Below are positions 271-56,595 of a stretch of 64,000 nucleotides of DNA, piece by piece; position 1 is the first letter of the stretch; each line of letters begins with the position of its first letter. Origin of the DNA: an archaeon GW2011_AR5 (GTDB taxonomy: Archaea > Aenigmatarchaeota > Aenigmatarchaeia > GW2011-AR5). Made by a program: the position numbers and the translations under genes. The notes beneath the pieces are model-generated. The model was not told the DNA's origin. It made no database searches and was given only the letters and a program-made list of their open reading frames with translations. The stretch is from the NCBI GenBank assembly GCA_000806115.1, contig JWKQ01000002.1, positions 52,497 through 116,496 on the forward strand. The letters are read 5' to 3'.

Positions 271-1353
271 CTAATTTATAACTCCTTTTTGCCTTAGAAT
301 ACGTATATGGTAGTCTATTGTCGAAATATTCCTGTTCAATTCTTTGGCTATTTCAGTCCTTTTCCTGCCAGATTTGAGCAGGTTTATAACTAATTCCTTG
401 CTCTCCACTTGCCCATAGTGAGGTATCTGCTTGGAGTTCAGGATAGATTCTAATTTATTGGCTTTTTCTTTATGAATAAAGTCTATGCTTTCTTTGAATT
501 TCTTAAGATTCTCGTATCCCCGAACGTAGAAATAATAAAAATCAAATCCGTTATGATTCTTGTAACATACAGTCCCACATCTTATTCCAAATTCCTCTAT
601 CATTTTTCTTAAGTCAAAAAGCATGTTTTCATTGCTGCATGAAAGCTCTATATGCCTGTAAGGTGGCTTGAATTTTACTGAACCCTCGTCATCAGCAAAT
701 GCCTTGACAAAAGTCCTCTTTATTTCCGTATCATTGCTGTTCTTTATGAAATCCGGAATTCTACAGGTTTTGCCGTTGAAATCCGGAACAACAGTTTTTA
801 GGATTACGCCTACTGGGGAAGGCAAAGTCACGAAATCGACTCCCTTATTTTTAGATTGATATATTTCAAAATCTCCGAAGACTTTCCTTGTATGTTCTTT
901 GAAAATTTCAAGAAGCCCCCTGTCCTTGTTATAATAATGCACATGCAGATACCCATTCTTTTCAGTGCTTACACAGCCGTCACAAAAAAGATGGGCAATG
1001 ACCGAGGAAAGCTCAGGTGTTAGCGTGATTGGAAATTTTGGGTATATTGGTTTGCTTTTTGCGTTCCCGAAATTTCTGTTTTTGTAAAAACAGCTTTTCA
1101 ATTCTATTATATTTTGCTGTTCCTTATTCAGGTCGATTTCGCATAATCTGCAGATTTCAGAAAGAATTTTTAGGGGATAATTACTGTTTTTCCGCCATGA
1201 ACAAAGCGAGCCTGACCAGAGATTCATCACTTTTGCCAGTTTCCTGATGCTTCCATACTTCATAGTTACTGAATTATTTATCTTGTATGCAAATTCCTTA
1301 TTTAGCTTCACGAAGAATCTTTCAGAAGGCAGGTCGGTTATGTTTATTTGCAT
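271..1353 (-). CDS. LAGLIDADG-family homing endonuclease (two-motif, monomeric type) with a C-terminal helix-turn-helix
   Basis: 360 aa. Two LAGLIDADG-like motifs are present: IAHLFCDGCVS and VKAFADDEGSV. The C-terminal stretch TEIAKELNRNISTIDYHIRILRQKG is HTH-like. The gene starts 45 nt downstream of the RT gene on the same strand. Confidence 0.6.
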   Translation of the reverse strand: MQINITDLPSERFFVKLNKEFAYKINNSVTMKYGSIRKLAKVMNLWSGSLCSWRKNSNYPLKILSEICRLCEIDLNKEQQNIIELKSCFYKNRNFGNAKSKPIYPKFPITLTPELSSVIAHLFCDGCVSTEKNGYLHVHYYNKDRGLLEIFKEHTRKVFGDFEIYQSKNKGVDFVTLPSPVGVILKTVVPDFNGKTCRIPDFIKNSNDTEIKRTFVKAFADDEGSVKFKPPYRHIELSCSNENMLFDLRKMIEEFGIRCGTVCYKNHNGFDFYYFYVRGYENLKKFKESIDFIHKEKANKLESILNSKQIPHYGQVESKELVINLLKSGRKRTEIAKELNRNISTIDYHIRILRQKGVIN

Positions 1354-1398: not shown

Positions 1399-2454
1399 TT
1401 ATAAAGATTGAGTGATTTTCTTCATGTTTTTTCTGATTCTGTTGCGAATCTTGTAAGTGTTTCCATGTACAGCGTAAGCGCACCATCCGCTGATTTTTGC
1501 GTCCAATTCTCCCTGTGATATGTTGCCGTTTTTGTAGTCTTCAGCAAGTTCTTCCATTCTGAGATTCATTGATCGCAAATTGCTCTTTTTCAGGAGCTTG
1601 TGGTGGTAAAAAATCCTGAACCCAAGAAAATTTGCTCCGCTGTGCAGTGCATATATTTTAGACTTATCTGGATGCAATTCAAGCTTCAGTGAATTTTTTA
1701 GAAATTCGTCTATTCTGGATTTCCACCATTCAAGAACCACTTTTTTGTCGTGCAGAATCACGAAATCATCAAGGTATCGTATGTAGAATCGTGCGCGGAG
1801 ATTATGCTTCACGAACTTGTCAAGCTCGTTGAGGTAAATGTTAGCGAAGAACTGTGATGTCAGGTTTCCTATGGGCATGCCTTTCCAGTTTTTAGTCGAA
1901 TGGTTTGCTACTATTTTCCTTATCAGGCTCATGACCTTATCGTCATTTATCTTCTTTGCCAGTATCTTTAGCAGTATTTCATGGTCAACTGTTTCAAAAT
2001 AGTGCCTTATATCGGCTTTTAGGAAGTACCCGATAGTCATGTTGCCGTCTTTGGCGTTCTTGACAAGTCGTCCGTTTTTGCTCGCTTTTCTCTTGAATGT
2101 GTCGAATCGTTTTATCGCTGCGTGAGTTCCTTTGCCTTTCCGGCTTGCATACGAATCATGTATGAATGATTTCTCGAAAAGCGGTTCTATGACGTTGCAT
2201 ATGGCATGGTGCACGACGCGGTCGCGAAAATGGGACGAGCTTATTGTCCTTGTCTTTGGGTCACGTATGACAAAATTCTTGAGGGGATGCGGCTGATAAG
2301 TGTCCGTCCTTAGTTCAGCCTCGAGCTTTGCCAGGTTCCTCTCAAGCTCTTTCTCGAATTTGTGCACATACCATTTTGAAGTCTTGTTTTTCCTTGCTTT
2401 CCTGTAAGCCAGAAGAAGGTTATCATAGGAGCAGATTTGATTATATAGATTCAT
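1399..2454 (-). mobile_element. Group II intron-type reverse transcriptase/maturase (RT + X domains, no endonuclease domain); possibly a free-standing group-II-like RT
   Basis: 351 aa. RT blocks are present: PIGNLTSQFFANIYL (RT4), RYLDDFVIL (RT5, YLDD rather than YADD) and LGFRI (RT7). A thumb/X-like GWCAYAVHGNTY follows. No space is left for intron domains V/VI before the next gene. Confidence 0.75.
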
Positions 2455-2939
2455 GAAAATCCCGGCAGGGCTGCTAGGACGAGAGGCAACCCTGTCAGTC
2501 GGCTCGCTTCTATGGAGGAACGATTTACCGGAGTTGAGCGGGTGCCTGTTCGCATTTGCGCTTCTTTTTCGAAGTCGGATGACGCATATGCGTCTGTTTG
2601 TTCCAAAAAGAATTGACGTTGAACCGGCCGTTTGCGAGTCTTGAGACTTGTCGCCGATGTCCGGGTTGAAGTTGCGCCCAACGAACCGTCTAGCTGCCTT
2701 ATCAAAGTCCTGAGACCACTGCTGCTTGAATTTGAAAAATTCTTGCAGATGTATTTTATGTCATCAGCGCCAGAGTGCGGCGCTTCGATATAAGGCAGCG
2801 TGTAGCCAGCTGCCGGGATAATTACACTTTCCAACACGTACACGACTTTAATCGCGGGTTCGCTTGGAAAATGGAATCCTGAATGCATCCCTGTATGTCG
2901 CCTGAAGACGGCAATTTCAGGCGCATTCAAGATGAACAA
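2451..2939 (-). other. Low-confidence ORF, probably chimeric; its C-terminal half is an out-of-frame read through a pseudogene fragment
   Basis: 162 aa. Its stop overlaps the RT start (ATGA). The low-complexity S/T-rich C-terminus coincides with the degenerate gene-fragment copy at 2476-2700. Confidence 0.2.
2476..2700 (-). pseudogene. Degenerate duplicate of the 3'-terminal coding region of CDS 3041-3754, with insertions and Asp-to-Asn substitutions
   Basis: Nucleotides 2476-2700 align to 3106-3215, with three insertions of about 20-70 nt. Translated in the homologous frame it gives FVGRNFNPDIGD...ANRHPLNSG...RVASRP, against FVGRDFDPDFGDYGRFYVLADRRPLDSGVDGVASRP in the intact gene. Confidence 0.45.
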
Positions 2940-3040
2940 GAAGGAAGAACTTAATATGTTATAAAAAGATCTATCTCTCTCTGGCGCTCGACAGGAAACA
3001 GAGGTTCATGTAACTTTCTTTGCGTGACTAGAATAAAAAA

Positions 3041-3754
3041 TTATGCCTTAGCTTCTGATGCAGTCCTGATGTCAATCTCGCCAATTACGTTATGTTCTGC
3101 ATAGGCGGGACGAGAGGCAACCCCGTCAACACCGGAGTCGAGCGGGCGCCTGTCCGCAAGGACGTAGAACCGGCCGTAGTCGCCGAAGTCCGGGTCGAAG
3201 TCGCGCCCAACGAACCTTTTGCCACCCTTGAAATTGTCAGGTCTGTAAAATCCTGATATTTCTACAGCAGGTAAGTCAAATTCTAAATAAGCTCTCTCTG
3301 CTTCTGCCCGCTCTTCGAAAGGCACTGTCTTTTCCGGAATGAGCGTGAACGGTTGGAAAAATCTATATCCTTTAACATTGTCCGCAATCGGGACAACCAG
3401 CCCTGGCTTTGGAGCCCATGCTTTGATGAGAATTTCATCGTCCCTGCCGTCATTTGACTTGTACAGGATAGGTATGTGTCCCTCGCTCGGAGACTGCTCG
3501 CCGCCGTGCATTCTGTCCTCTGCTGAATCATGCGTTATCTCTCCGTACCAGCTTCTTTTCCTGTCATTGTACCTCTTGACATCCCTGTCGTGAAAAGCGT
3601 TGTCAAATCTGTTGTGGCTGTATGCTGCAAAAATAGCATGACCAGGCGGTGCCTGCCTGTGAAGCTGTGCATAAGGGACTATGGTGCCCAGTTCCGGCAG
3701 TTCAAAAGGCACGTCAAACGAGCCCTTGTCTGTCAATACTCTGAAAACATCCAT
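3041..3754 (-). CDS. Hypothetical protein (no family recognised)
   Basis: 237 aa clean ORF with a protein-like composition. Its 3' end is duplicated as a degenerate fragment at 2476-2700. Confidence 0.45.
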   Translation of the reverse strand: MDVFRVLTDKGSFDVPFELPELGTIVPYAQLHRQAPPGHAIFAAYSHNRFDNAFHDRDVKRYNDRKRSWYGEITHDSAEDRMHGGEQSPSEGHIPILYKSNDGRDDEILIKAWAPKPGLVVPIADNVKGYRFFQPFTLIPEKTVPFEERAEAERAYLEFDLPAVEISGFYRPDNFKGGKRFVGRDFDPDFGDYGRFYVLADRRPLDSGVDGVASRPAYAEHNVIGEIDIRTASEAKA

Positions 3755-5107: not shown

Positions 5108-5749
5108 CTAACTTTCACCTTTTGCTTCCTTAAAAAACTGCCTCAGATAACTTTCCATAAAATTATGCCTTTCTTCCGCCATTAGCCTTCCTGTTTTAGT
5201 GTTCATCCTGTCTTTCAGGAGCAGGAGTTTTTCATGAAAATGATTGATAGCCGAGCCTTCTGTTCTCTTATACTGTTCGAAACTCATATTTTCCCTTGCT
5301 TCAACAGAAGGGTTGAAAATTGGTATGTTCTTATAGCCTGCGTAGGTAAATGCCCGTGCAATCCCGAATGCCCCTATTGCATCCAGCCTGTCGGCATCCT
5401 GCACCACTTTGCCTTCAAGAGTCTGTATTTTATTTTGTTCCGCAGAGCCTTTGAATGAGATGTTCTCCACAATATGTATTATCTTTTCTGCCGTGCCGGA
5501 GTCCACTCCCAGGGATTGGAGCCATGCGGCGGATTTGACGGCGGTTTCATGGGAATTAAATTTGAAGTCGTCTATGTCGTGCAGCAAAGTCGCCATCTCG
5601 ACCACGAACAAATCAGCTCCCTCCTCCTTGGCTATCAGCTTCGCCGTGTTCCAGACGCGTTCTATGTGAAACCAGTCGTGCGTGGCGTCCTTGTATTCTT
5701 CCATATTCCGGCGGACGTACTCTTTTGTTCTTTCTATTGCATCTTGCAT
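5108..5749 (-). CDS. HD-domain phosphohydrolase
   Basis: 213 aa with H...HD motifs (WFHIERV, LLHDIDD). It lies 2 nt downstream of serS. Confidence 0.65.
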   Translation of the reverse strand: MQDAIERTKEYVRRNMEEYKDATHDWFHIERVWNTAKLIAKEEGADLFVVEMATLLHDIDDFKFNSHETAVKSAAWLQSLGVDSGTAEKIIHIVENISFKGSAEQNKIQTLEGKVVQDADRLDAIGAFGIARAFTYAGYKNIPIFNPSVEARENMSFEQYKRTEGSAINHFHEKLLLLKDRMNTKTGRLMAEERHNFMESYLRQFFKEAKGES

Positions 5750-8456: not shown

Positions 8457-9096
8457 GGATTTCCATGGTGTCTATAATAGGTATGCTGACGTCGCGCTGC
8501 CCGATAACCAGCTGCAGGTCCGTGCATCCAAGTATGATGCCTTGCGCCCCGCGTTCTTCAAGCTCTTTGATGATGCCTATTAGTTCATTTTTCATGCCGG
8601 CGGACATCTTGCCCTGAAGTATGAAATGTATTATCTCGGACAGCCTTGCCTGGCGTTCCTCCGGAGGCTTAAGGACTGATACGCTGGCAAGTTTTGATTC
8701 TAGTATGCCGGACTCCGCGGTTTTCGTAGTCGCCAGAAGTCCCGCTCTCCTGATTTTCCTCCTTTCAACTTCTTTTGACGTCTCTTCCAGTATGCTCAGC
8801 ACAGGCTTGTCGGACGCCTTCCTTATATCTTCTATGAAAATGTGCAGCGTGTTGCATGGCAGGACGAGCACGTCGCACCTGTCTTCCAGAAGCCTCACGC
8901 TGTCAAGGAGAAGGGGCAGGAACTGTTCGAGGCATTTTCCGTGCTTTACCGCGGACTTTTCAAGCTCGAAGGGCACAGGGACGTTGTGGATGATTATGTC
9001 AGGATGCGCGCGCGCTTTCCTGCTTCTGTTCACTATTGACATGTAGAACTGTGCCGTTGTCTCGGGACCGAACCCGCCTATTATCCCGAGCCTCAT
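8413..9096 (-). CDS. Aspartate/glutamate racemase family protein (aspartate racemase-like)
   Basis: 227 aa. It has an N-terminal GIIGGFGPETT and both catalytic Cys motifs (LPCNTLH, GCTDL). Confidence 0.75.
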   Translation of the reverse strand: MRLGIIGGFGPETTAQFYMSIVNRSRKARAHPDIIIHNVPVPFELEKSAVKHGKCLEQFLPLLLDSVRLLEDRCDVLVLPCNTLHIFIEDIRKASDKPVLSILEETSKEVERRKIRRAGLLATTKTAESGILESKLASVSVLKPPEERQARLSEIIHFILQGKMSAGMKNELIGIIKELEERGAQGIILGCTDLQLVIGQRDVSIPIIDTMEILANSAVQHMGGTNG

Positions 9097-9368
9097 GGCG
9101 ATTCCTCCAGTATCCTGAGAATAAGCATGCCTGTCTTGTTCAGTCTGACGGGCCTGGAGTTTTCATGAGTAACGGCTCCAGATGACTTTAATTTTTTGAA
9201 ATTCAGCTTCAGCGTGGAGAGCGGTATCGATTTCTCGCGCGATATGCGTGTAAGGAGCGCCGTAGACGTTTCTCCGCGTGTCTTTGAAATTTCCCTGAGA
9301 ATCAGGAGTTGATGGCAGCTGAGAGCCTTGAGTAAGAACGGTCCAAGCTTCTCGCCGCCGGATTCCAT
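9093..9368 (-). CDS. Small winged-HTH transcriptional regulator (ArsR/TrmB-like)
   Basis: 91 aa with a HTH around LLILREISKTRGETSTALLTRIS. It is divergent from the element-rich promoter region at 9396-9613. Confidence 0.5.
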   Translation of the reverse strand: MESGGEKLGPFLLKALSCHQLLILREISKTRGETSTALLTRISREKSIPLSTLKLNFKKLKSSGAVTHENSRPVRLNKTGMLILRILEESP

Positions 9369-9395
9369 TGGTAGTCCATTGCACCAACCCTTGCC

Positions 9396-9497
9396 GAATT
9401 ATAGTTAACCCAGAAAAGATTTCGGACATGAATTCTGGGTTAACAGATAGCTCACAAGGAAGTAATATCCTGTTTAATTCCTTGTAGAGCTATAATC
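9396..9497. promoter_or_regulatory. Palindromic promoter element E1: hairpin-1 (gttaacccagaa/ttctgggttaac) + AGATAG + hairpin-2 (ctcacaagga/tccttgtagag) + CTATAAT
   Basis: A perfect 12 bp inverted repeat lies at 9404-9444 and a 10 bp-stem palindrome at 9451-9489. A minus-strand TATA-like aattatag sits at 9397-9404, about 30 nt upstream of the regulator ATG at 9368. The element is about 85% identical to the copy at 47303-47404. Confidence 0.6.
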
Positions 9498-9553
9498 AGC
9501 TGTTTAATTAACGCATAAGGGCTTTTAAGCATTCTGGGCAGCTTTGGCTGGCT

Positions 9554-9613
9554 TTCCTTGTATCTCACAAGGAAATAATATTGCCTAGATTGTTTCCTTG
9601 TAGAGCTATAAAG
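9554..9613 (+). promoter_or_regulatory. Palindromic promoter element E2 (hairpin-2 module only), fused to a GCTATAAAG TATA box about 25 nt upstream of the ATG at 9636
   Basis: tatctcacaaggaaataatattgcctagattgtttccttgtagagctataaag matches the hairpin-2 half of E1/E3. The spacing from TATA to start codon is consistent with a leaderless archaeal promoter. Confidence 0.6.
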
Positions 9614-9635
9614 CGGGAAATACAGAAATAAGTTT

Positions 9636-10400
9636 ATGCTAATAGGCTCGCTAAATAATCCGGCAAACGACCTTCTCAGCGAAGTGAAGTGGATATCCAA
9701 TAACTTCGATTTCCTTGACCTGACGCTTGAGCTGCCGAAAGCCCATCCGGACAAAATAAAGATAAACGAACTAAGGAAGCTCATTGACAAAAAGAAGCTG
9801 CCCGTCGTCGGACACACGGCGTGGTACCTGCCGATAGGCTCGCCTTTCAAGGAACTGCGCGTTTATGCGCTGGGCGAGCTTGAGAAAAGCGCCGAAGTGT
9901 TTCAGAAGCTGGGTGCAAGGAAATTCAACGTCCATTTCGACCGCTCTCTGTCGCTTATACTGAAGGATTTCATGATTGAGACAAACATATGGTCCTTGAG
10001 GCGTCTCATAAAAATCGGGAAAAGGCATGATCTCAGGGTCATGGCGGAGAATACGCCGGGCTTGTTCAGCAATCCTGCGGTGCTTGACAGGATATTCGGG
10101 AAAGTTCCCGGCCTGCTGCTGCATCTTGATATAGCGCACGCGAACATAGCTCCCAGAAACCGGACGCCCGCCATCATGAAAAAGCTTTCTAAAAAGCTCA
10201 CTCACATACATATAAGCGGGAACCATGGCAAGCAGGACGAGCATCTGCCCATCGGGAAAGGGAACATAGACTGGAAGGCGATGCTGGGTGCTGTTAAAAG
10301 GGCTGGATACGATGATACAATAAGCCTTGAGGTATTCACAAGTACGAAAGACAGGCTGAAGGACAGGCCTAAATTGAGGAAAATATGGAACAATTTATAA
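9636..10400 (+). CDS. Sugar phosphate isomerase/epimerase (xylose isomerase-like TIM barrel)
   Basis: 254 aa with an AP-endonuclease-2 / xylose-isomerase-like pattern (His/Glu/Asp metal ligands). Confidence 0.5.
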   Translation: MLIGSLNNPANDLLSEVKWISNNFDFLDLTLELPKAHPDKIKINELRKLIDKKKLPVVGHTAWYLPIGSPFKELRVYALGELEKSAEVFQKLGARKFNVHFDRSLSLILKDFMIETNIWSLRRLIKIGKRHDLRVMAENTPGLFSNPAVLDRIFGKVPGLLLHLDIAHANIAPRNRTPAIMKKLSKKLTHIHISGNHGKQDEHLPIGKGNIDWKAMLGAVKRAGYDDTISLEVFTSTKDRLKDRPKLRKIWNNL

Positions 10401-12726: not shown

Positions 12727-13637
12727 ATGATTGAGATAGACGGCTCAAGCGGCGAGGGCGGTGGGCAAATCATAAGAACAGCTGTGGCGCTTTCCGCGAT
12801 TACAGGCAAGCCTTGCATGATAGAGAAAATCCGCGCAGGCAGACCGAACCCCGGTTTGCAGGCGCAGCATCTCACAGCCGTCAAAGCCGTGGCGAAGATA
12901 TGCGGCGCCGAAACAGATGCCGGCATCGGAAGCACTTCCCTGATGTTCAAGCCCGGCACCATTCGGGGCGGGCAGCACGAGATAGACATAGGGACGGCAG
13001 GCGCGGTTTCTCTTGTTCTTCAATCAGTTATTCTCCCCTCGCTCCACGCAGAGCATCCTACATCGATTACAATAAAAGGAGGCACTCATGTGAGATGGAG
13101 CCCGAGCATGGACTATATGCAGAATATATTTTGCTACTACATGAAAAAACTTGGGCTCGGAGCCGACATCAGTATAGAACAGCATGGATTTTATCCGCGC
13201 GGAGGCGGCGTGATAAAAGCGAAGATAATTCCGGGCAATCCAAAGCCGCTTGACATGACAGAACGCGGCGACCTGATAGCCTACGAAGCGACAAGCATAG
13301 CGTCCGCCGACTTGCAGAAGAGTCAGGTTGCAGAACGGCAGTTGAAAAGGGTTGAAAAGATTTTTCCGTTGTCCAGAAGGAACATAGCGTATTTCCAGAC
13401 CGCAAGTCCGGGCTCAGCCGTGCACGTGTCTGCCGTGACATGGACTCAGGGGCGTGCTTCGACCGTCACATGTCAGACCAGATTCTGCCTTTTCTGGCAT
13501 TTGCAAAAAATGACAGCAGGATAAAAGTCGCGGAGATTACGGGACATGTAAGGACAAATATCCAGGTAATCGAGAAGTTCCTTCCTGTGAAGTTTGAAAT
13601 CGACGAAGCGGGAAAAATAATAAGAGTGAAAGTATGA
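12727..13637 (+). pseudogene. rtcA: RNA 3'-terminal phosphate cyclase, disrupted by a frameshift and internal deletion near 13420-13450
   Basis: ORF 12727-13524 begins with the classic RtcA IEIDGSSGEGGGQIIRTAVALSAITGKP. The RtcA C-terminus (DQILPFLAFA...) is in another frame as ORF 13440-13637. About 35 aa between the GSAVHVSA region and the xxDxHxxDQ region appear to be missing. Confidence 0.6.
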
Positions 13638-14197
13638 TGAAAAAAGACTCCGTATTTTTAACAAGAAATTTTGTGAAATCCAAGTTTATGAAAAATCCCC
13701 ATTATAGTTTCGATAACTGGGTCGTGATGTACGCGCATAGTCTCAACGTGGAAAAGATGGCTGTCAAGATATCAAAAGGAACAAAATGCGACCGGCAGGT
13801 CTTGTCCATAGGGTCTCTCCTGCACGACATTGGCAAAACATACAAAACCGATAAGGGCACACTCCACAAGCATCATGAAGATTTTAACCTGGTAGTCAGT
13901 GAAAATTTTCTTGGTACGCTGGGTTTGGACAAGAAAAGCCTGGATAAAATAAAGAAAATTATATCTTACAAGAGCAAGTCGGTGGAAATGAGAATTATAA
14001 AAGATGCCGACGCAATCGCATTTTATTACGACAAGAGGCTCAACATGCTTTTCCTGAACTGGGCAAGAAGGAATCGCCTGGGGGACGCTATAGAGAGGAA
14101 GCTCAGGAAGTTTGATAAGCTGAGATTCGAAGCGAGCAGAAAAATCGGAAAACCCTGGTTCGAGAGGATGAAAAAAGACTGGAAAATCAATTCTTGA
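13634..14197 (+). CDS. HD-domain phosphohydrolase
   Basis: 187 aa with LLHDIGK. Its ATGA overlaps the end of the rtcA remnant. Confidence 0.6.
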   Translation: MMKKDSVFLTRNFVKSKFMKNPHYSFDNWVVMYAHSLNVEKMAVKISKGTKCDRQVLSIGSLLHDIGKTYKTDKGTLHKHHEDFNLVVSENFLGTLGLDKKSLDKIKKIISYKSKSVEMRIIKDADAIAFYYDKRLNMLFLNWARRNRLGDAIERKLRKFDKLRFEASRKIGKPWFERMKKDWKINS

Positions 14198-17361: not shown

Positions 17362-17414
17362 ATTATTAAATTATTATATACGAAGACGGTGTCTGAGTCA
17401 AACCCTTTCTTGGG

Positions 17415-17464
17415 GTACAAGCAAGAGTTTGCTCTTGCTGTACAGCATGAACTTTGTTCATGCT
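17415..17464 (+). other. Two adjacent near-perfect hairpins (13 bp and 9 bp stems), 30 nt after a TATATAC box; possibly a small structured RNA or an RNA processing/termination structure
   Basis: The stems are gtacaagcaagag/ctcttgctgtac and agcatgaac/gttcatgct. They lie between the stop of 16531-17361 and the start of 17488-17907. Confidence 0.35.
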
Positions 17465-17487
17465 TGTAAGACCTAGACCTAAAGTAC

Positions 17488-17907
17488 ATGACGCTAAAGC
17501 GTCGTTCGGTATCGGGAAAGAAGGGATTGGTAATGGTTTGGAAAGGCGTGATTATCGAGGAGAGCCTTGAGGACGCCTCGCTGCTGGACAGCGTATCGTT
17601 GGTTGGCTATGCCGAAAGCTTTCTTGAAGAAGAGGAAGGGAAGGGCGTGATGCGTTTTCACCACTTCGAGCTTACGGACGAAAAGAAAGAATGGTTCGTC
17701 CGCGAAGCGGAGCGCTGCCTTAAGCACGGCTGGTATATTCACATAGGAAAAGACGACATACTGGTTGTCATATTCAAAGAAAGGTCTTTCAAATTTTCCT
17801 CTTCGGAAAAAGAGAAGCTGGAAGAAGCCAGGAAATACGGCATTTCTGTCGGTGTCATCAGAGAACAGATGCCGTTCGAAGAGCTGTTAAAAGATCCTTT
17901 CTACTAG
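17488..17907 (+). CDS. Hypothetical protein; the true start may be at the downstream Met near 17533
   Basis: 139 aa ORF. The first codons overlap a hairpin (gacgctaaagcgtc). Confidence 0.35.
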   Translation: MTLKRRSVSGKKGLVMVWKGVIIEESLEDASLLDSVSLVGYAESFLEEEEGKGVMRFHHFELTDEKKEWFVREAERCLKHGWYIHIGKDDILVVIFKERSFKFSSSEKEKLEEARKYGISVGVIREQMPFEELLKDPFY

Positions 17908-21039: not shown

Positions 21040-21176
21040 AGGTACTCATCGTCCTTTGAGTTCATAAGTTTTCGGCGATTTTTCATTTTGATTTTTGCAC
21101 CATTCGGCTTTTTAATTAATAGTATGAAGAAGTATGAAAACTTAGGTATTAAAGCACTGTAGTCCTAGTGATTTGC

Positions 21177-25014: not shown

Positions 25015-25103
25015 ACGTTTTGCAGAAAGAGCAAAGCTCTTGCTGCATGTGAACAGGCGAGAATAAATATCCGAAATCTTTGCCTGTTCAGCTATAAATT
25101 CTT

Positions 25104-38860: not shown

Positions 38861-39835
38861 TTAGACGCTCTGCGTCTTCCTGTCAAGCATTCTTTCCGCT
38901 GCGGTTCTTACAGCTTCCTCTGAGGTGTACCTGGTCGCCCATCCGAGTTTCTTTAGCTTGGCAGTATCGAGAAGGAATCTTGTGATGTCACCGGGCCACC
39001 CGCCGGAATTGCCTGTGTACTTTATTTCCGGTGTCAGGCCCATTTCTTCCGTGACTATCTCGGCTATCCTGTCCACCGTTATCGCGTCGGTTGTGCTCAG
39101 GTTGAAAATATTGACATCGTCATGTGCATGCTCGAGGGCGAAAAGTATGCCAGAAACGCAGTCGTCCACAAGCATGTAGGATTTGCTCTGTTTTCCGTCG
39201 CCCAATATTTCCAGTTCCGAGGGATTTTGCCTGAGCTTGTAAATGAAATCCGATATGACTGTCCTTCCTTTTTTCCTGCTCTTGTCGCCCACTATGTTTG
39301 CAAACCTGAAAATCCATCCCTTCATGCCGAACATGCTGCTATACGCGGAGATTAGTCCCTCGCAAGCCACTTTGCTCGCGCCGTAGAGCGACGTAGGCTT
39401 CAACGGCCCGTAATCCTCCGGTGTTGGCATTTTGCCGGCCTTTCCGTAGACTACGGACGACGAAGAAAAGACTATCTTTCTTACGTTGTTTTTTTGCATC
39501 GCATCGAGAACCCTGTATGTTGCTATTGTGTTCTGCTCGAGGTCCTTGTCTGTCCTTTCGCCGGGGATGAATTTGATGTCTGGATTCGCTGCCAGGTGGA
39601 ATACTATGTCCTTGCCTTTCGTCGCCGTGTCAAGAACATCTTTATCAAGCACATCGCCCTCAATCAGCGTAAATGATGGATTACCCATGAACTCTTCTAT
39701 GTGCTCCGATTTGCCGCTGCTGAAATTGTCCAGGACAGTCACATGAAACTTTTTCATAAGCTCCTTAACAAGTTCTGACCCAATGCATCCGGCCCCCCCT
39801 GTAACCAGAACGGAAAGATTATTTTGGCTGTTCAT
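38861..39835 (-). CDS. NAD-dependent epimerase/dehydratase (UDP-sugar 4-epimerase-like)
   Basis: 324 aa with VLVTGGAGCIGS and YGASKVACE. Confidence 0.7.
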   Translation of the reverse strand: MNSQNNLSVLVTGGAGCIGSELVKELMKKFHVTVLDNFSSGKSEHIEEFMGNPSFTLIEGDVLDKDVLDTATKGKDIVFHLAANPDIKFIPGERTDKDLEQNTIATYRVLDAMQKNNVRKIVFSSSSVVYGKAGKMPTPEDYGPLKPTSLYGASKVACEGLISAYSSMFGMKGWIFRFANIVGDKSRKKGRTVISDFIYKLRQNPSELEILGDGKQSKSYMLVDDCVSGILFALEHAHDDVNIFNLSTTDAITVDRIAEIVTEEMGLTPEIKYTGNSGGWPGDITRFLLDTAKLKKLGWATRYTSEEAVRTAAERMLDRKTQSV

Positions 39836-39873: not shown

Positions 39874-39916
39874 CATAGAACCCGGAATTCATGTATGAAT
39901 TCTTTTCTGGGTTCAT
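39874..39916. promoter_or_regulatory. Hairpin-1-type palindrome (gaacccgg...ctgggttc) upstream of the minus-strand gene start at 39835; a member of the E-element family
   Basis: tagaacccggaattcatgtatgaattcttttctgggttcat has the same AACCC...GAATTC/CATG...GGGTT structure as hairpin-1 of E1 and E3. Confidence 0.5.
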
Positions 39917-39917
39917 A

Positions 39918-47302: not shown

Positions 47303-47404
47303 TATATAGTGAACCCACAAACATGCCTGAATTCTTTTGTGGGTTCACAGATAGCTCACAAGGGAGTGATATTATCCAGATTATTTCCTTGTAGAGCTAT
47401 AATC
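47303..47404. promoter_or_regulatory. Palindromic promoter element E3 (hairpin-1 gtgaacccacaaa/tttgtgggttcac + AGATAG + hairpin-2 + CTATAAT), upstream of glyA; it overlaps the last 15 codons of the 5-FCL gene
   Basis: About 85% identical to E1 over about 100 nt. There is a perfect 13 bp inverted repeat at 47309-47348. The 5-FCL stop codon (47356-47358) lies inside the element. Confidence 0.6.
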
Positions 47405-47928
47405 CGTTCCTCCGTAAGTATCATGTCAACAGGCACGTCATTGCTTTCCGTGTCGATTTTGTCCACTATCTGGAAGTCGAACGCGAGTGCTATTTTCTTG
47501 CCGGCGGTTTTTGCAAGGAACCTGTCAAAATATCCGCCGCCGCGTCCTATGCGGTTGCCGTTTTTGTCAAAAGCCGTGCCCGGAATTATAATCACGTCGA
47601 ATTCATTTTTGGCTGAAACTTCCATCGGCTCCGGAATGCCGAAAGCGCCCGACTTGAGTCCGCTGCTGAATGTCCCTGGCACGATGTCGCCGTCCCTGAT
47701 GACAGGACAGTAGACATTCTTTCCCAGTTTTACGGATTCGCGAATCACTTCCGACGTATCGACTTCGTGCATGTCTGACAGGTAAATGAATATGTCGCCG
47801 GCAGTCTGAAAGTCCTCGAGCAAAATGAGCCTTTCCTTTATGATTCCGCTCTTTATTTTCATGTTGGTATGGGATTTTAACTCTTCGGATTTCTGTTTTC
47901 TGACTGTTCTTTTGTCCGTGTGTATCAC
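47356..47928 (-). CDS. 5-formyltetrahydrofolate cyclo-ligase
   Basis: 190 aa with a GRGGGYFDR motif. The C-terminal 15 residues are encoded by repeat element E3. Confidence 0.7.
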   Translation of the reverse strand: MIHTDKRTVRKQKSEELKSHTNMKIKSGIIKERLILLEDFQTAGDIFIYLSDMHEVDTSEVIRESVKLGKNVYCPVIRDGDIVPGTFSSGLKSGAFGIPEPMEVSAKNEFDVIIIPGTAFDKNGNRIGRGGGYFDRFLAKTAGKKIALAFDFQIVDKIDTESNDVPVDMILTEERIIALQGNNLDNITPL

Positions 47929-55252: not shown

Positions 55253-55384
55253 GTTATCACCCTGTAAGAAACACCAGAATTCTAAATTCATGTCTAGGTT
55301 CTTAAGTTAATAACACGACAATTTATTTTAAAGTGACATTGGTACAAGCTTCAAAATAAGAACGTCAAAAATCTGTTTTTTAAA

Positions 55385-55457
55385 GTGAATCCAGTAAGTT
55401 TATGTGTGGATTCACTTATAGTTCCTAAGGACAGTTTTTCCTTGGAGAACTATATAG
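55385..55457 (+). promoter_or_regulatory. Diverged palindromic promoter element E4 (hairpin gtgaatccag/tgtgtggattcac + TTATAG + palindrome ttcctaagga/tccttggagaa + CTATATAG TATA), 23-30 nt upstream of the ATG at 55480
   Basis: It has the same two-hairpin + TATA architecture as E1/E3 but a diverged sequence. The direct repeat tatagttcctaa occurs twice. Confidence 0.45.
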
Positions 55458-55479: not shown

Positions 55480-56595
55480 ATGAGGATTGCTCTTTGCACG
55501 GAAATATTGTACCCTCTTTATGGCGTTGAGCGTCGTGTGTACGAGTTTGCGAGGCGTCTGCCGAAGTACGGTTTTGACGTCGAAGTCCTTACGTCCACGC
55601 AGCGCAGCCATTTCAAGCGCCTGAAAATCATCCAGGTAAGCAGGTGCACCATAACAAACCCGCCAAAGCGCAACTACGCTTTCTGCGCAAACTACATGTT
55701 CAGCCTTTTCCGCCAGCTCATGAAGCGCGATTATGATTTGGTGAATGCCGAAGGCCACCTTTCGCTGATTCCGTGTTCGGCTGCTGCTTCTTTGCGCAAG
55801 AAGGTTTCAATAGCGACGATACACGACCTATATCTCAGCGAATGGGGTAGCATGTACAAGAGCGCAGCCTCCCTGGCGGGTCTTCCGTTCGAGGCTGTGT
55901 CATGCAGGATGCCGTTCGACCACGTTCTTACAGTCAATTCTTCCCTGAAGGAAAAAATGAGCTCGGTTCTGAAAATACCCGAGAGAAAAGTGGAAATCCT
56001 GCACAGCGGGATTGACACGGGGTATATCGACTCTGTGAAAGGAAATGGGAAGGACGGTTCTGTAGTTTATGTCGGGCGCCTTGTGCCGCAGAAGGGCATT
56101 GAAATGCTTATCCGTTCATACGCAGTCCTCCCTGAAAATATAAGAAAATCTCACGAACTGAAGATAATCGGCGAAGGCTCGGAGCGCGGCAGGCTCGAAT
56201 CTCTTGCAAAGTCGCTCGGGATTTCAGTCAATTTCACCGGAAAGATAGAGAAGCATGAAGACGTGCTGAAGGAGCTGAAAAAAGCGTCCCTGTTCGTCCT
56301 GCCTTCCGTGCGCGAGAGCTTTGGCATCACAATACTTGAGGCGATGTGCTGCGGGGTGCCGGTAATTTCAACAAGAACAGAAGGCCCGTCGGACCACATA
56401 AGGGACGGCGAGACGGGTTTCCTAGTCGGCGACGGTAGTGGGATGGCAGAAAAGATGGAACTGGTTCTGTCAAGCAGCGTGCTCCGGAAAAAACTGTCAA
56501 GGAACGGCAGGGAATATGCGGCAAAGCACGACTGGGAAAACATCACGAAGAACGTGGCGGGTGTCTACAAAAAAGTTTATGAGAGAAAGCACTAA
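55480..56595 (+). CDS. Glycosyltransferase family 4
   Basis: 371 aa with a GT-B C-terminal EGFGITILEAMCCGVPVIST motif. Confidence 0.7.
   Translation: MRIALCTEILYPLYGVERRVYEFARRLPKYGFDVEVLTSTQRSHFKRLKIIQVSRCTITNPPKRNYAFCANYMFSLFRQLMKRDYDLVNAEGHLSLIPCSAAASLRKKVSIATIHDLYLSEWGSMYKSAASLAGLPFEAVSCRMPFDHVLTVNSSLKEKMSSVLKIPERKVEILHSGIDTGYIDSVKGNGKDGSVVYVGRLVPQKGIEMLIRSYAVLPENIRKSHELKIIGEGSERGRLESLAKSLGISVNFTGKIEKHEDVLKELKKASLFVLPSVRESFGITILEAMCCGVPVISTRTEGPSDHIRDGETGFLVGDGSGMAEKMELVLSSSVLRKKLSRNGREYAAKHDWENITKNVAGVYKKVYERKH

Follow-up and report, generated by a model that had tools for sequence, protein, structure and literature searches.

The 64,000-nucleotide stretch of DNA analysed here (the window) comes from the archaeon GW2011_AR5, of the Aenigmatarchaeota (GenBank assembly GCA_000806115.1, contig JWKQ01000002.1, positions 52,497 to 116,496). 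Near its left end, a minus-strand gene for a 91-residue protein and a gene starting at ATG 9636 diverge from a region that carries two copies of a conserved palindromic sequence. A first-pass annotation, made from the sequence alone, had placed five such copies, E1 to E5, in the window, and all of them are indeed found where it had placed them. It took them for operator/activator sites of one transcription factor, the adjacent 91-residue winged helix-turn-helix (wHTH) protein, defining a small regulon, with a miniature mobile promoter-bearing element as the fallback. As shown below, it is the fallback that is supported, by nested copies, filled and empty sites and TA flanks: the palindromes are most probably copies of a family of non-autonomous transposable elements, that is, of a MITE (miniature inverted-repeat transposable element). 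Its main repeat unit, the A element, is non-coding and measures about 91-93 nt (about 95 nt with the flanking TA); a smaller unit, the B element, inserts into A and elsewhere. The pieces present in the window, together with the neighbouring gene, are as follows.

9402..9492, plus strand: E1, a full A element (TAG...CTA), recovered among the repeat families, as inverted repeats I14 and I24, and by nhmmer (E = 8e-26); hairpin-1 arms at 9404-9415 and 9433-9444, hairpin-2 arms at 9449-9461 and 9478-9494, the A at 9486 being bulged; TA on either side at 9400-9401 and 9493-9494 (span with flanks 9400-9494)

9526..9608, plus strand: E2, an A element truncated at its 5' end (nhmmer E = 8e-13, match 9526-9611); remnant of the hairpin-1 3' arm at about 9533-9541, hairpin 2 at 9564-9574 and 9594-9605, terminal CTA

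47307..47399, plus strand: E3, a full A element, recovered among the repeat families, as inverted repeat I7, and by nhmmer; hairpin-1 arms at 47309-47321 and 47336-47348; TA copies at 47305-47306 and 47400-47401

39876..39917, minus strand: E4, a solitary hairpin 1 (GAACCC...GGGTTC) with TA/ATA flanks (nhmmer, hairpin-1 profile, E = 6e-6)

55380..55454, plus strand: E5, an A element that has diverged and whose hairpin-2 loop is short, with the two hairpins present (nhmmer E = 5.5e-9)

25023..25097, minus strand: a diverged remnant, with a hairpin-1-like module beside a single B-like hairpin at 25023-25045 (inspection; nhmmer E = 0.41, weak)

17418..17466, no strand assigned: a solitary B element of 49 nt, CAAGCAAGAG-TTT-CTCTTGCTG-TA-CAGCATGAAC-TTT-GTTCATGCTTG, with TA at 17416-17417 and 17467-17468

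9093..9368, minus strand: the gene of the 91-residue protein, with a weak match to HTH_20 (Pfam E = 0.006, below the family cut-off), given for context only and outside the element family

E1 begins with a perfect 12-bp hairpin, in which GTTAACCCAGAA (9404-9415) pairs with TTCTGGGTTAAC (9433-9444), followed by AGATAG and by a second palindrome, AGCTC-ACAAGGAA with TTCCTTGT-A-GAGCT, abutting CTATAAT. This is the arrangement that the first-pass annotation had described, apart from the second stem, which is palindromic as claimed but, instead of a clean 10 bp, comprises 13 bp and a single bulged A. The single-stranded DNA of E1 folds at -25.6 kcal/mol, against -6.2 +/- 2.0 for shuffled sequences (z = -9.5). 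The pattern AAGG-N(8-38)-CCTTGNAGA occurs 4 times in the window where 0.21 occurrences are expected, and none of 100 shuffles yielded at least 4. E2 does repeat the second palindrome fused to a TATA sequence, as had been noted; it is in fact a 5'-truncated copy that has kept a remnant of the 3' arm of hairpin 1. Its flanking TA (9609-9610) plus AA gives CTATAAAG, with the TATA starting 29 nt before the ATG at 9636. Hairpin 2 of E3 extends over the final ~17 codons and stop of the 5-formyltetrahydrofolate (5-FTHF) cyclo-ligase gene (47356-47928, minus strand), and the hairpin-1 loop of E3 (47322-47335) runs the opposite way from that of E1 and of almost every other copy. E4 is found some 10 nt upstream of the TATA native to an epimerase gene (38861-39835, minus strand). 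In E5 the stems are preserved by compensatory changes (GTGAATCCA/TGGATTCAC and AGTTC-CTAAGGA/TCCTTGG-A-GAACT), and the right-end TATA starts 29 nt before the ATG of a glycosyltransferase gene at 55480. In the remnant, TGAACAGGC (25050-25058) can be matched with GCCTGTTCA (25082-25090), the minus-strand loop agrees with the family loop, and the end GCTATAA (25091-25097) stands 26-29 nt before ATG 25119/25122; its assignment by inspection to the A family, as a diverged piece, is less certain. A profile search of the whole window recovered E1 to E5 and a diverged minus-strand piece at 25050-25097, six A-type pieces in total, and no other A-type copy.

Related loci were collected from archaeal metagenome-assembled genomes (MAGs) and metagenome contigs and are designated here by L-numbers. 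The aligned copies yield the consensus T-TA-TAG-TGAACCCAGTAAAGAWTCYGGAYATGATTTACTGGGTTCAC-ATATAG-CTCACAAGGAARTAATATCYTGTTTGTTTCCTTGTAGAG-CTA-TA-A. An A element thus consists of TAG, hairpin 1 (a 13-bp stem with a conserved loop of ~17 nt), the linker (C)ATATAG, hairpin 2 (a 13-bp stem with one bulged A and an AT-rich loop) and CTA, the flanking TA being duplicated. Similarity between copies breaks off sharply at TATAG and CTATA. The element is modular, since hairpin 1 and hairpin 2 are each found solitary too. The ends of the composite element share just TAG/CTA (TATAG/CTATA if the TA is included), a terminal repeat of 3 nt; the inverted arms are longer within the modules, 13 nt in hairpin 1 and ~10 nt in B (CAWGGnGAA). 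No open reading frame (ORF) is found in A (~91-93 nt) or in B (49-52 nt).

One indication of mobility comes from copies that have landed within other copies. In L035, an A element sits within the hairpin-1 arm of another, at the TA of GTTAAC, giving TTATAGT-TA-[TAG...CTA]-TA-ACCCAG; L075 shows the same nested arrangement, and in L067 an A copy lies within a hairpin-1 loop. These three A-in-A nestings, which agree with a duplication of the TA, define the element as TAG...CTA flanked on either side by TA. The B element, of 50 nt (49-52), is made of two small hairpins around CCTGTACAGG, capped by tri- or tetraloops, with termini CAWGG...CCWTG and TA flanks. It is carried by many A copies, in which it is found between the two hairpins or in the hairpin-2 loop, and at these two different positions the B-carrying A elements have exactly one extra TA compared with canonical copies. 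A pair of strains provides a filled site (L022) and an empty one (L086), in which the flanks are 100% identical and the difference amounts to B (50 nt) plus one TA: CACATA[B]TATAGCTC against CACATATAGCTC. The solitary B of the window (17418-17466) belongs to the same family as the B elements nested in the A elements of other genomes.

Comparisons of orthologous spacers point in the same direction. In L072, elements totalling ~390 nt separate two genes whose L057 counterparts overlap, and one of the elements provides the new stop codon. L012 carries a nest of ~440 nt, of which the orthologous spacer of the window (21040-21163) has nothing. In L013 and L038 the same orthologous spacer harbours copies at different positions and in opposite orientation. 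As to the target, among 44 copies found without using the right end, TATA follows ...GAGC in all 44, with A as the next base in 37, and T precedes TATAG in 84 of 115 cases, so that the preferred target is T-TA-A. The family displays short non-coding units, many dispersed copies, a target-site duplication and presence or absence at orthologous sites, as found for MITEs.

Three observations on these spacers may be added. The nest in L012 (4180-4727, minus strand) packs at least 6 hairpin modules of several types into a single promoter spacer, and a hairpin-2 loop within it has grown to ~190 nt through inserted hairpins. A hairpin GACGC-TAAA-GCGTC at 17491-17504 of the window, close to the solitary B, resembles those in this nest. 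The window spacer at 17362-17533 is ~170 nt longer than its L012 counterpart, and with the two differing by this much a clean empty site for the B at 17416 was not obtained. Two further comparisons were set aside: that of E5 with L046, considered as a case of inversion at the same site, since the L046 spacer contains an extra gene, and the variant left flank of E1 in L005, which is uninformative as the contig ends 32 nt away.

A search of the GTDB species collection with the right-end 17-mer of the element, TCCTTGTAGAGCTATAA, gave 67 loci. Thirteen MAGs labelled Aenigmatarchaeota or 'uncultured archaeon' account for 58 of them, with up to 17 exact copies in one MAG and 13-14 in another; the remaining 9 matches are bacterial or other and lack the rest of the element. 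A pattern spanning the hairpin-1/hairpin-2 junction retrieved 53 metagenome loci representing 44 distinct copies. Several contigs end at the A element. The 17-mer found no match in viral contigs. The window itself belongs to an Aenigmatarchaeota genome of groundwater origin; the protein encoded at 9636-10400 also occurs on groundwater metagenome contigs (ENA, JGI), one of which is named ANAN16. No published description of the A/B family, of MITEs in Aenigmatarchaeota or of TATA-targeting archaeal MITEs was found in the searchable literature.

A covariation analysis, which the first-pass annotation had proposed, was run, and both stems covary strongly: 95.3% of the cells are paired, and both sides have changed in 11 of 29 pairs. 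At one position of hairpin 1, for example, the pair is GC in 19 copies, CG in 12 and AU in 8. None of 500 shuffles attained the observed values on any of five measures, and registers slid along the stem pair just 34-45%. Many different stem variants occur within one genome, and hairpin-1 stem variants are common to several species. Mismatches read on the top strand comprise 17 G:T against 9 A:C, with no clear strand preference, a count that is not decisive. Apparently the same site upstream of the racemase operon is occupied in the window (E1), L052 and L016, the copies being 84-86% identical and the flanking genes ~68-75%; like the stem variants common to several species, this could stem from selection acting on the element, from concerted evolution or from several insertions at one hot spot.

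The first-pass annotation was right that the copies abut TATA boxes, and the mode of insertion explains it. With TA as the duplicated target and TAG/CTA as the termini, every insertion has TATAG on its left and CTATA(A) on its right, that is, two outward-facing TATA-box-like sequences, which is why the copies look fused to TATA boxes. The orientation of the copies is mixed, the right end pointing towards a gene start 37 times and towards a gene end 36 times. A crude ORF call gave 12 divergent, 24 tandem and 10 convergent spacers among the 46 that bear elements, against 82, 257 and 87 in a background of 426. Intergenic types are thus occupied in about background proportions, and placement is not promoter-specific. 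Inspection confirmed that the L022 copy lies between convergent 3' ends, those of a Fic-like gene and another gene. The promoter placement claimed earlier holds in the window, where every copy is upstream of at least one gene; across genomes, all intergenic types are occupied.

A subset of the copies nevertheless stands out by its spacing from genes. In 8 of 74 copies, those before genes 9636 and 55480 included, 24-25 nt lie between the CTATA of the right end and the next ATG of a long ORF, compared to 19 of 1287 other NTATAA sites (~7-fold enrichment; Fisher p = 5e-5). At left ends this spacing occurs in none of 78 (p = 0.003). The TATA boxes native to these genomes begin at -29/-30 relative to the ATG, a spacing indicative of leaderless mRNAs. 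The right ends of E2 (gene 9636) and E5 (gene 55480) lie at exactly the TATA position, in spacers without any other TATA. A minority of copies, E2 and E5 among them, thus probably supply the TATA box of the downstream gene, and the end at 25097 probably does likewise. This asymmetry between right and left ends suggests that the sequence just inside the right end, GTAGAGC, would suit the function of a transcription factor B recognition element (BRE) and that inside the left end would not; a promoter would then retain insertions in one orientation only.

How well do these data suit the other readings of the palindromes? That they form the operators or activator sites of the 91-residue wHTH protein is hardly credible, even though two copies occupy the divergent region beside its gene, each copy in the window has at least one gene downstream of it, and a palindromic form is typical of the sites of dimeric factors. 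Some copies occur between convergent genes, at the 3' ends of genes or nested within one another. Half-sites are separated by anything from 6 to more than 190 nt, and the arms covary instead of following a single consensus. Their neighbours in the window are unrelated: a racemase operon, a TIM-barrel enzyme, a serine hydroxymethyltransferase (SHMT), a sugar epimerase, a radical SAM protein and a glycosyltransferase. A tblastn search with the 91-residue protein, which matches HTH_20 only below the Pfam cut-off, found no homologue in 58 other loci; its reach is limited with so short and diverged a protein, and it missed a probable ortholog whose start was recognized by inspection beside the L052 copy. 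Neither fixed promoter positions, nor a coherent gene set, nor a co-occurring factor gene was found, as a regulon would have them. The first-pass annotation had itself held that elements scattered without promoter association would argue against its regulon, and such scatter is what the genomes show. It is very unlikely, too, that the hairpins act mainly as RNA, either as small-RNA genes or as untranslated-region (UTR) elements influencing how stable mRNAs are or how they are processed, a role reported for Correia and ERIC elements. The covariation of both stems, the conserved loops, the tri- or tetraloops capping the small hairpins of B and some pairs compatible with G:U (the 17 G:T on the top strand) would all suit an RNA. 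Against it, top-strand wobble is not significantly in excess, and Rfam 15 has no family for the elements, neither in a search of the whole window at gathering score nor in one of 9300-9700 allowing E up to 10, where chance-level matches only were seen. The orientation relative to neighbouring genes is mixed, and TATA-like sequences stand only at the ends and between the hairpins, so a transcript starting ~25 nt downstream would lack an intact hairpin 1. The hairpin-1 loop is, moreover, flipped in E3, L025 and L059. Origin-recognition boxes, terminators and CRISPR repeats were dropped on account of position, copy distribution and the absence of arrays.

The loop flip deserves a remark of its own: it affects about 3 in 100 copies, and these look as though the segment between the 13-bp arms had been inverted.

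A more serious question is whether the family moves as folded single strands. In such a scheme, REPIN/RAYT-like or derived from insertion sequences (IS) of the IS200/IS605 type, an HUH tyrosine transposase would read the hairpins in their folded form, cutting beside a TA and inserting 3' of a TA, the 'duplication' being the sum of target and element end. The nested insertions fit insertion 3' of TA equally well, and the strongly covarying stems, the conserved loops, the many stem variants in one genome, the very stable single-stranded folds and the presence of IS200-like Y1 transposase genes in these genomes all speak for it. We nonetheless consider it unlikely. The ends are symmetric in both units (TA|TAG...CTA|TA and TA|CAWGG...CCWTG|TA), as for terminal inverted repeats with a target duplication, and the G:T and A:C mismatches betray no clear strand preference. 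The ends of IS200/IS605 are asymmetric, and one TnpA normally reads similar left and right hairpins, whereas hairpin 1 and hairpin 2 differ in sequence; with symmetric ends, TA on both sides and unlike hairpins, the family belongs neither to IS200/IS605 derivatives (PATE) nor to REP/RAYT. The search for IS200-type genes, with a TnpA sequence as tblastn probe, led to one IS200-like Y1_Tnp gene, in L061 (1730-2227, minus strand; Pfam E = 6e-10), with an A copy 270 nt away; in a second MAG, L030 has a homologous IS end near 5555-5638, beside a cluster of hairpin 1 and B-like modules. The hairpins of this gene, CTGCGGGTTY...RAACCCGCAG, have the opposite stem polarity to those of A and B, and occur solely next to it without being dispersed. 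It could not be linked to the A/B family as its mobiliser, and to meet a single-copy gene in 2 of 13 genomes is close to the chance expectation, given how much DNA was collected.

The reading retained, then, is that the A/B family is a TA-targeting MITE analogous to the Correia elements and not a wHTH regulon; placement, spacing, nesting and a tblastn search that found no wHTH homologue in the 58 other loci all leave the regulon unsupported. Insertion would take place at TA, preferably within T-TA-A, and leave TA on both sides. It would be carried out by an enzyme acting in trans, for which the TA flanks and the symmetric ends point to a DDE transposase of the IS630/Tc1-mariner type as the best candidate; the covarying stems and conserved loops, for their part, point to recognition of a folded strand as in REPIN/RAYT. 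The right end, GTAGAGC followed by TATAA, might act as BRE and TATA box of leaderless genes, and insertions placing it into or at promoters would be tolerated or selected. Stem complementarity may be kept up by a requirement for a hairpin or cruciform during mobilisation, or through correction within the palindrome.

Several facts weigh against this reading or temper it. No autonomous partner or transposase with matching ends turned up in ~840 kb of related loci, where the Y1 gene of L061 is the only transposase seen; the cognate autonomous IS expected of a MITE was not found in the ~0.5-0.84 Mb of collected loci that were covered. Within the same amount of DNA, no hairpin-1...hairpin-2 pair stands more than 270 nt apart; the related loci contain no long-range TA-CAWGG...CCWTG-TA pairs at 0.4-3.5 kb, and among 552 ORFs no multi-copy family was found, the ORF clusters being housekeeping paralogues. 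Formally, a duplicated TA cannot be distinguished from the outcome of an element whose own end is TA inserting 3' of a TA. For A, no filled/empty pair exists between near-identical strains, and its mobility is deduced from nested copies and from comparisons between species. Both the covarying stems with conserved loops and the 85-95% identity of copies across species whose flanking genes share ~70% exceed the needs of a purely selfish MITE of the DDE type. The gene calls behind the placement counts are crude, one 'convergent' spacer (L010) having proved tandem on inspection, and the promoter activity proposed for the element ends is read from spacing alone. It is conceivable, if unlikely, that the family is more than selfish DNA. 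In one form of this idea, selection would act on a folded form read by a dedicated protein of the host or of the element, possibly amounting to an archaeal single-strand system, REPIN/RAYT-like and targeting TA, spread over at least 13 species; in another, the family would serve as a promoter cassette, portable and domesticated, that rewires leaderless genes by bringing a complete BRE/TATA to TTAA sites.

Among known systems, the closest analogue of the A element is the Correia element of Neisseria (CREE/NEMIS), likewise small and non-coding, with inverted-repeat ends and insertion at TA. Correia elements measure 104-108 or 153-157 bp, and their inverted-repeat ends start with TATAG[CT]GGATTAA; they target TA, have promoters at either or both ends, and no transposase is known for them (PMC2649163, PMC10969869). 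Even the terminal letters are similar, TATAG[CT]GGATTAA in Correia and TATAGTGAACCC or TATAGTTAACCC in the A family. In-place inversion has been reported for Correia, and in the A family hairpin-1 loops are flipped and orthologous spacers carry copies in opposite orientations. The differences are equally plain. Correia elements are bacterial and write sigma-70 boxes, whereas the archaeal A family, through its end plus the target TA, writes a TATA box at -29 of leaderless genes; only TATAGTG is common to the two, the 26-bp terminal repeat, the Neisseria core and the IHF site of Correia being absent from A; and A has two different internal hairpins with covarying stems and a nested 50-nt B. The A family works like Correia but is not a member of it.

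Archaeal MITEs, such as the SM elements of Sulfolobus and those of Haloquadratum and Halobacterium, and the MITEs of DPANN archaea are likewise short, non-coding, multi-copy and intergenic, and depend on a transposase in trans; for some DPANN genomes, high MITE densities have been reported (PMC11602168, PMC10969869). Known archaeal MITEs are, however, mostly deletion derivatives of identified IS, and the A family is built from tiny hairpin modules with no parent IS found. The REP/REPIN, BOX and BIME sequences, the former served by RAYT, resemble A and B as small covarying palindromes that are clustered, nested, intergenic and modular and number tens of copies. REP/REPIN, however, have no TA flanks and carry a conserved GTAG-type tetranucleotide by the stem, and their hairpins match those flanking a single RAYT gene. 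The sole Y1 gene seen near the A/B family, by contrast, has unrelated hairpins. IS630 and Tc1-mariner elements target TA and duplicate it. Their MITEs share with A this target and duplication as well as the symmetric ends; unlike them, the A family has a composite terminal repeat of 3 nt, and neither an IS630-like ORF nor a long same-ended element was seen. The IS630 family is present in archaea (PMC13343696).

Replacing a regulon by a mobile element avoids a false regulatory annotation in Aenigmatarchaeota genomes, in which A and B hairpins fill many spacers and break assemblies. The family would be an archaeal counterpart of Correia, in which the chemistry of insertion (TA plus TAG/CTA) writes the core archaeal promoter motif at both ends, and about a tenth of the right ends stand exactly where leaderless genes need their TATA box. 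If these ends are active, they would offer the small-genome DPANN archaea a simple route for moving promoters. The family also offers potential markers for tracking strains and a handle on its transposase.

Some features outside the element family were met in the course of this work. A scan of the window for tRNA genes found none. In L061 (about 1495-1625, minus strand), an intron-containing tRNA-like sequence was recognized by eye from its acceptor, D and T arms, and ARAGORN reported none there; similar pieces lie in L117 (5800-5870). At 13436/13437 of the window, 94 nt of the RNA 3'-phosphate cyclase (RTC) gene are missing relative to the near-identical L001 and L002, which splits the gene into ORFs 12727-13524 and 13634-14197. 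Gaps of 46-146 nt likewise separate loci of the JAGVVU01 MAG (L032, L039, L052) from JGI contigs (L089, L110, L122). Both sets of gaps look like differences of assembly or curation and not like biology.

Finally, the minus strand of the window at 1399-3754 carries a probable diversity-generating retroelement. It comprises a reverse transcriptase gene (Pfam RVT_1, 1399-2454), an RNA matching Rfam RT-16 at 2685-2816 (52 bits, cut-off 50), and template/variable repeats at ~2648-2709 and 3177-3238, the latter within an ORF of 237 residues (3041-3754). In the core of the repeats, where they align well, all four differences are an A in the first copy versus G or T in the second. Directly downstream of the reverse transcriptase gene lies an ORF of 360 residues (271-1353, minus strand), with a LAGLIDADG_3 domain and a C-terminal HTH.

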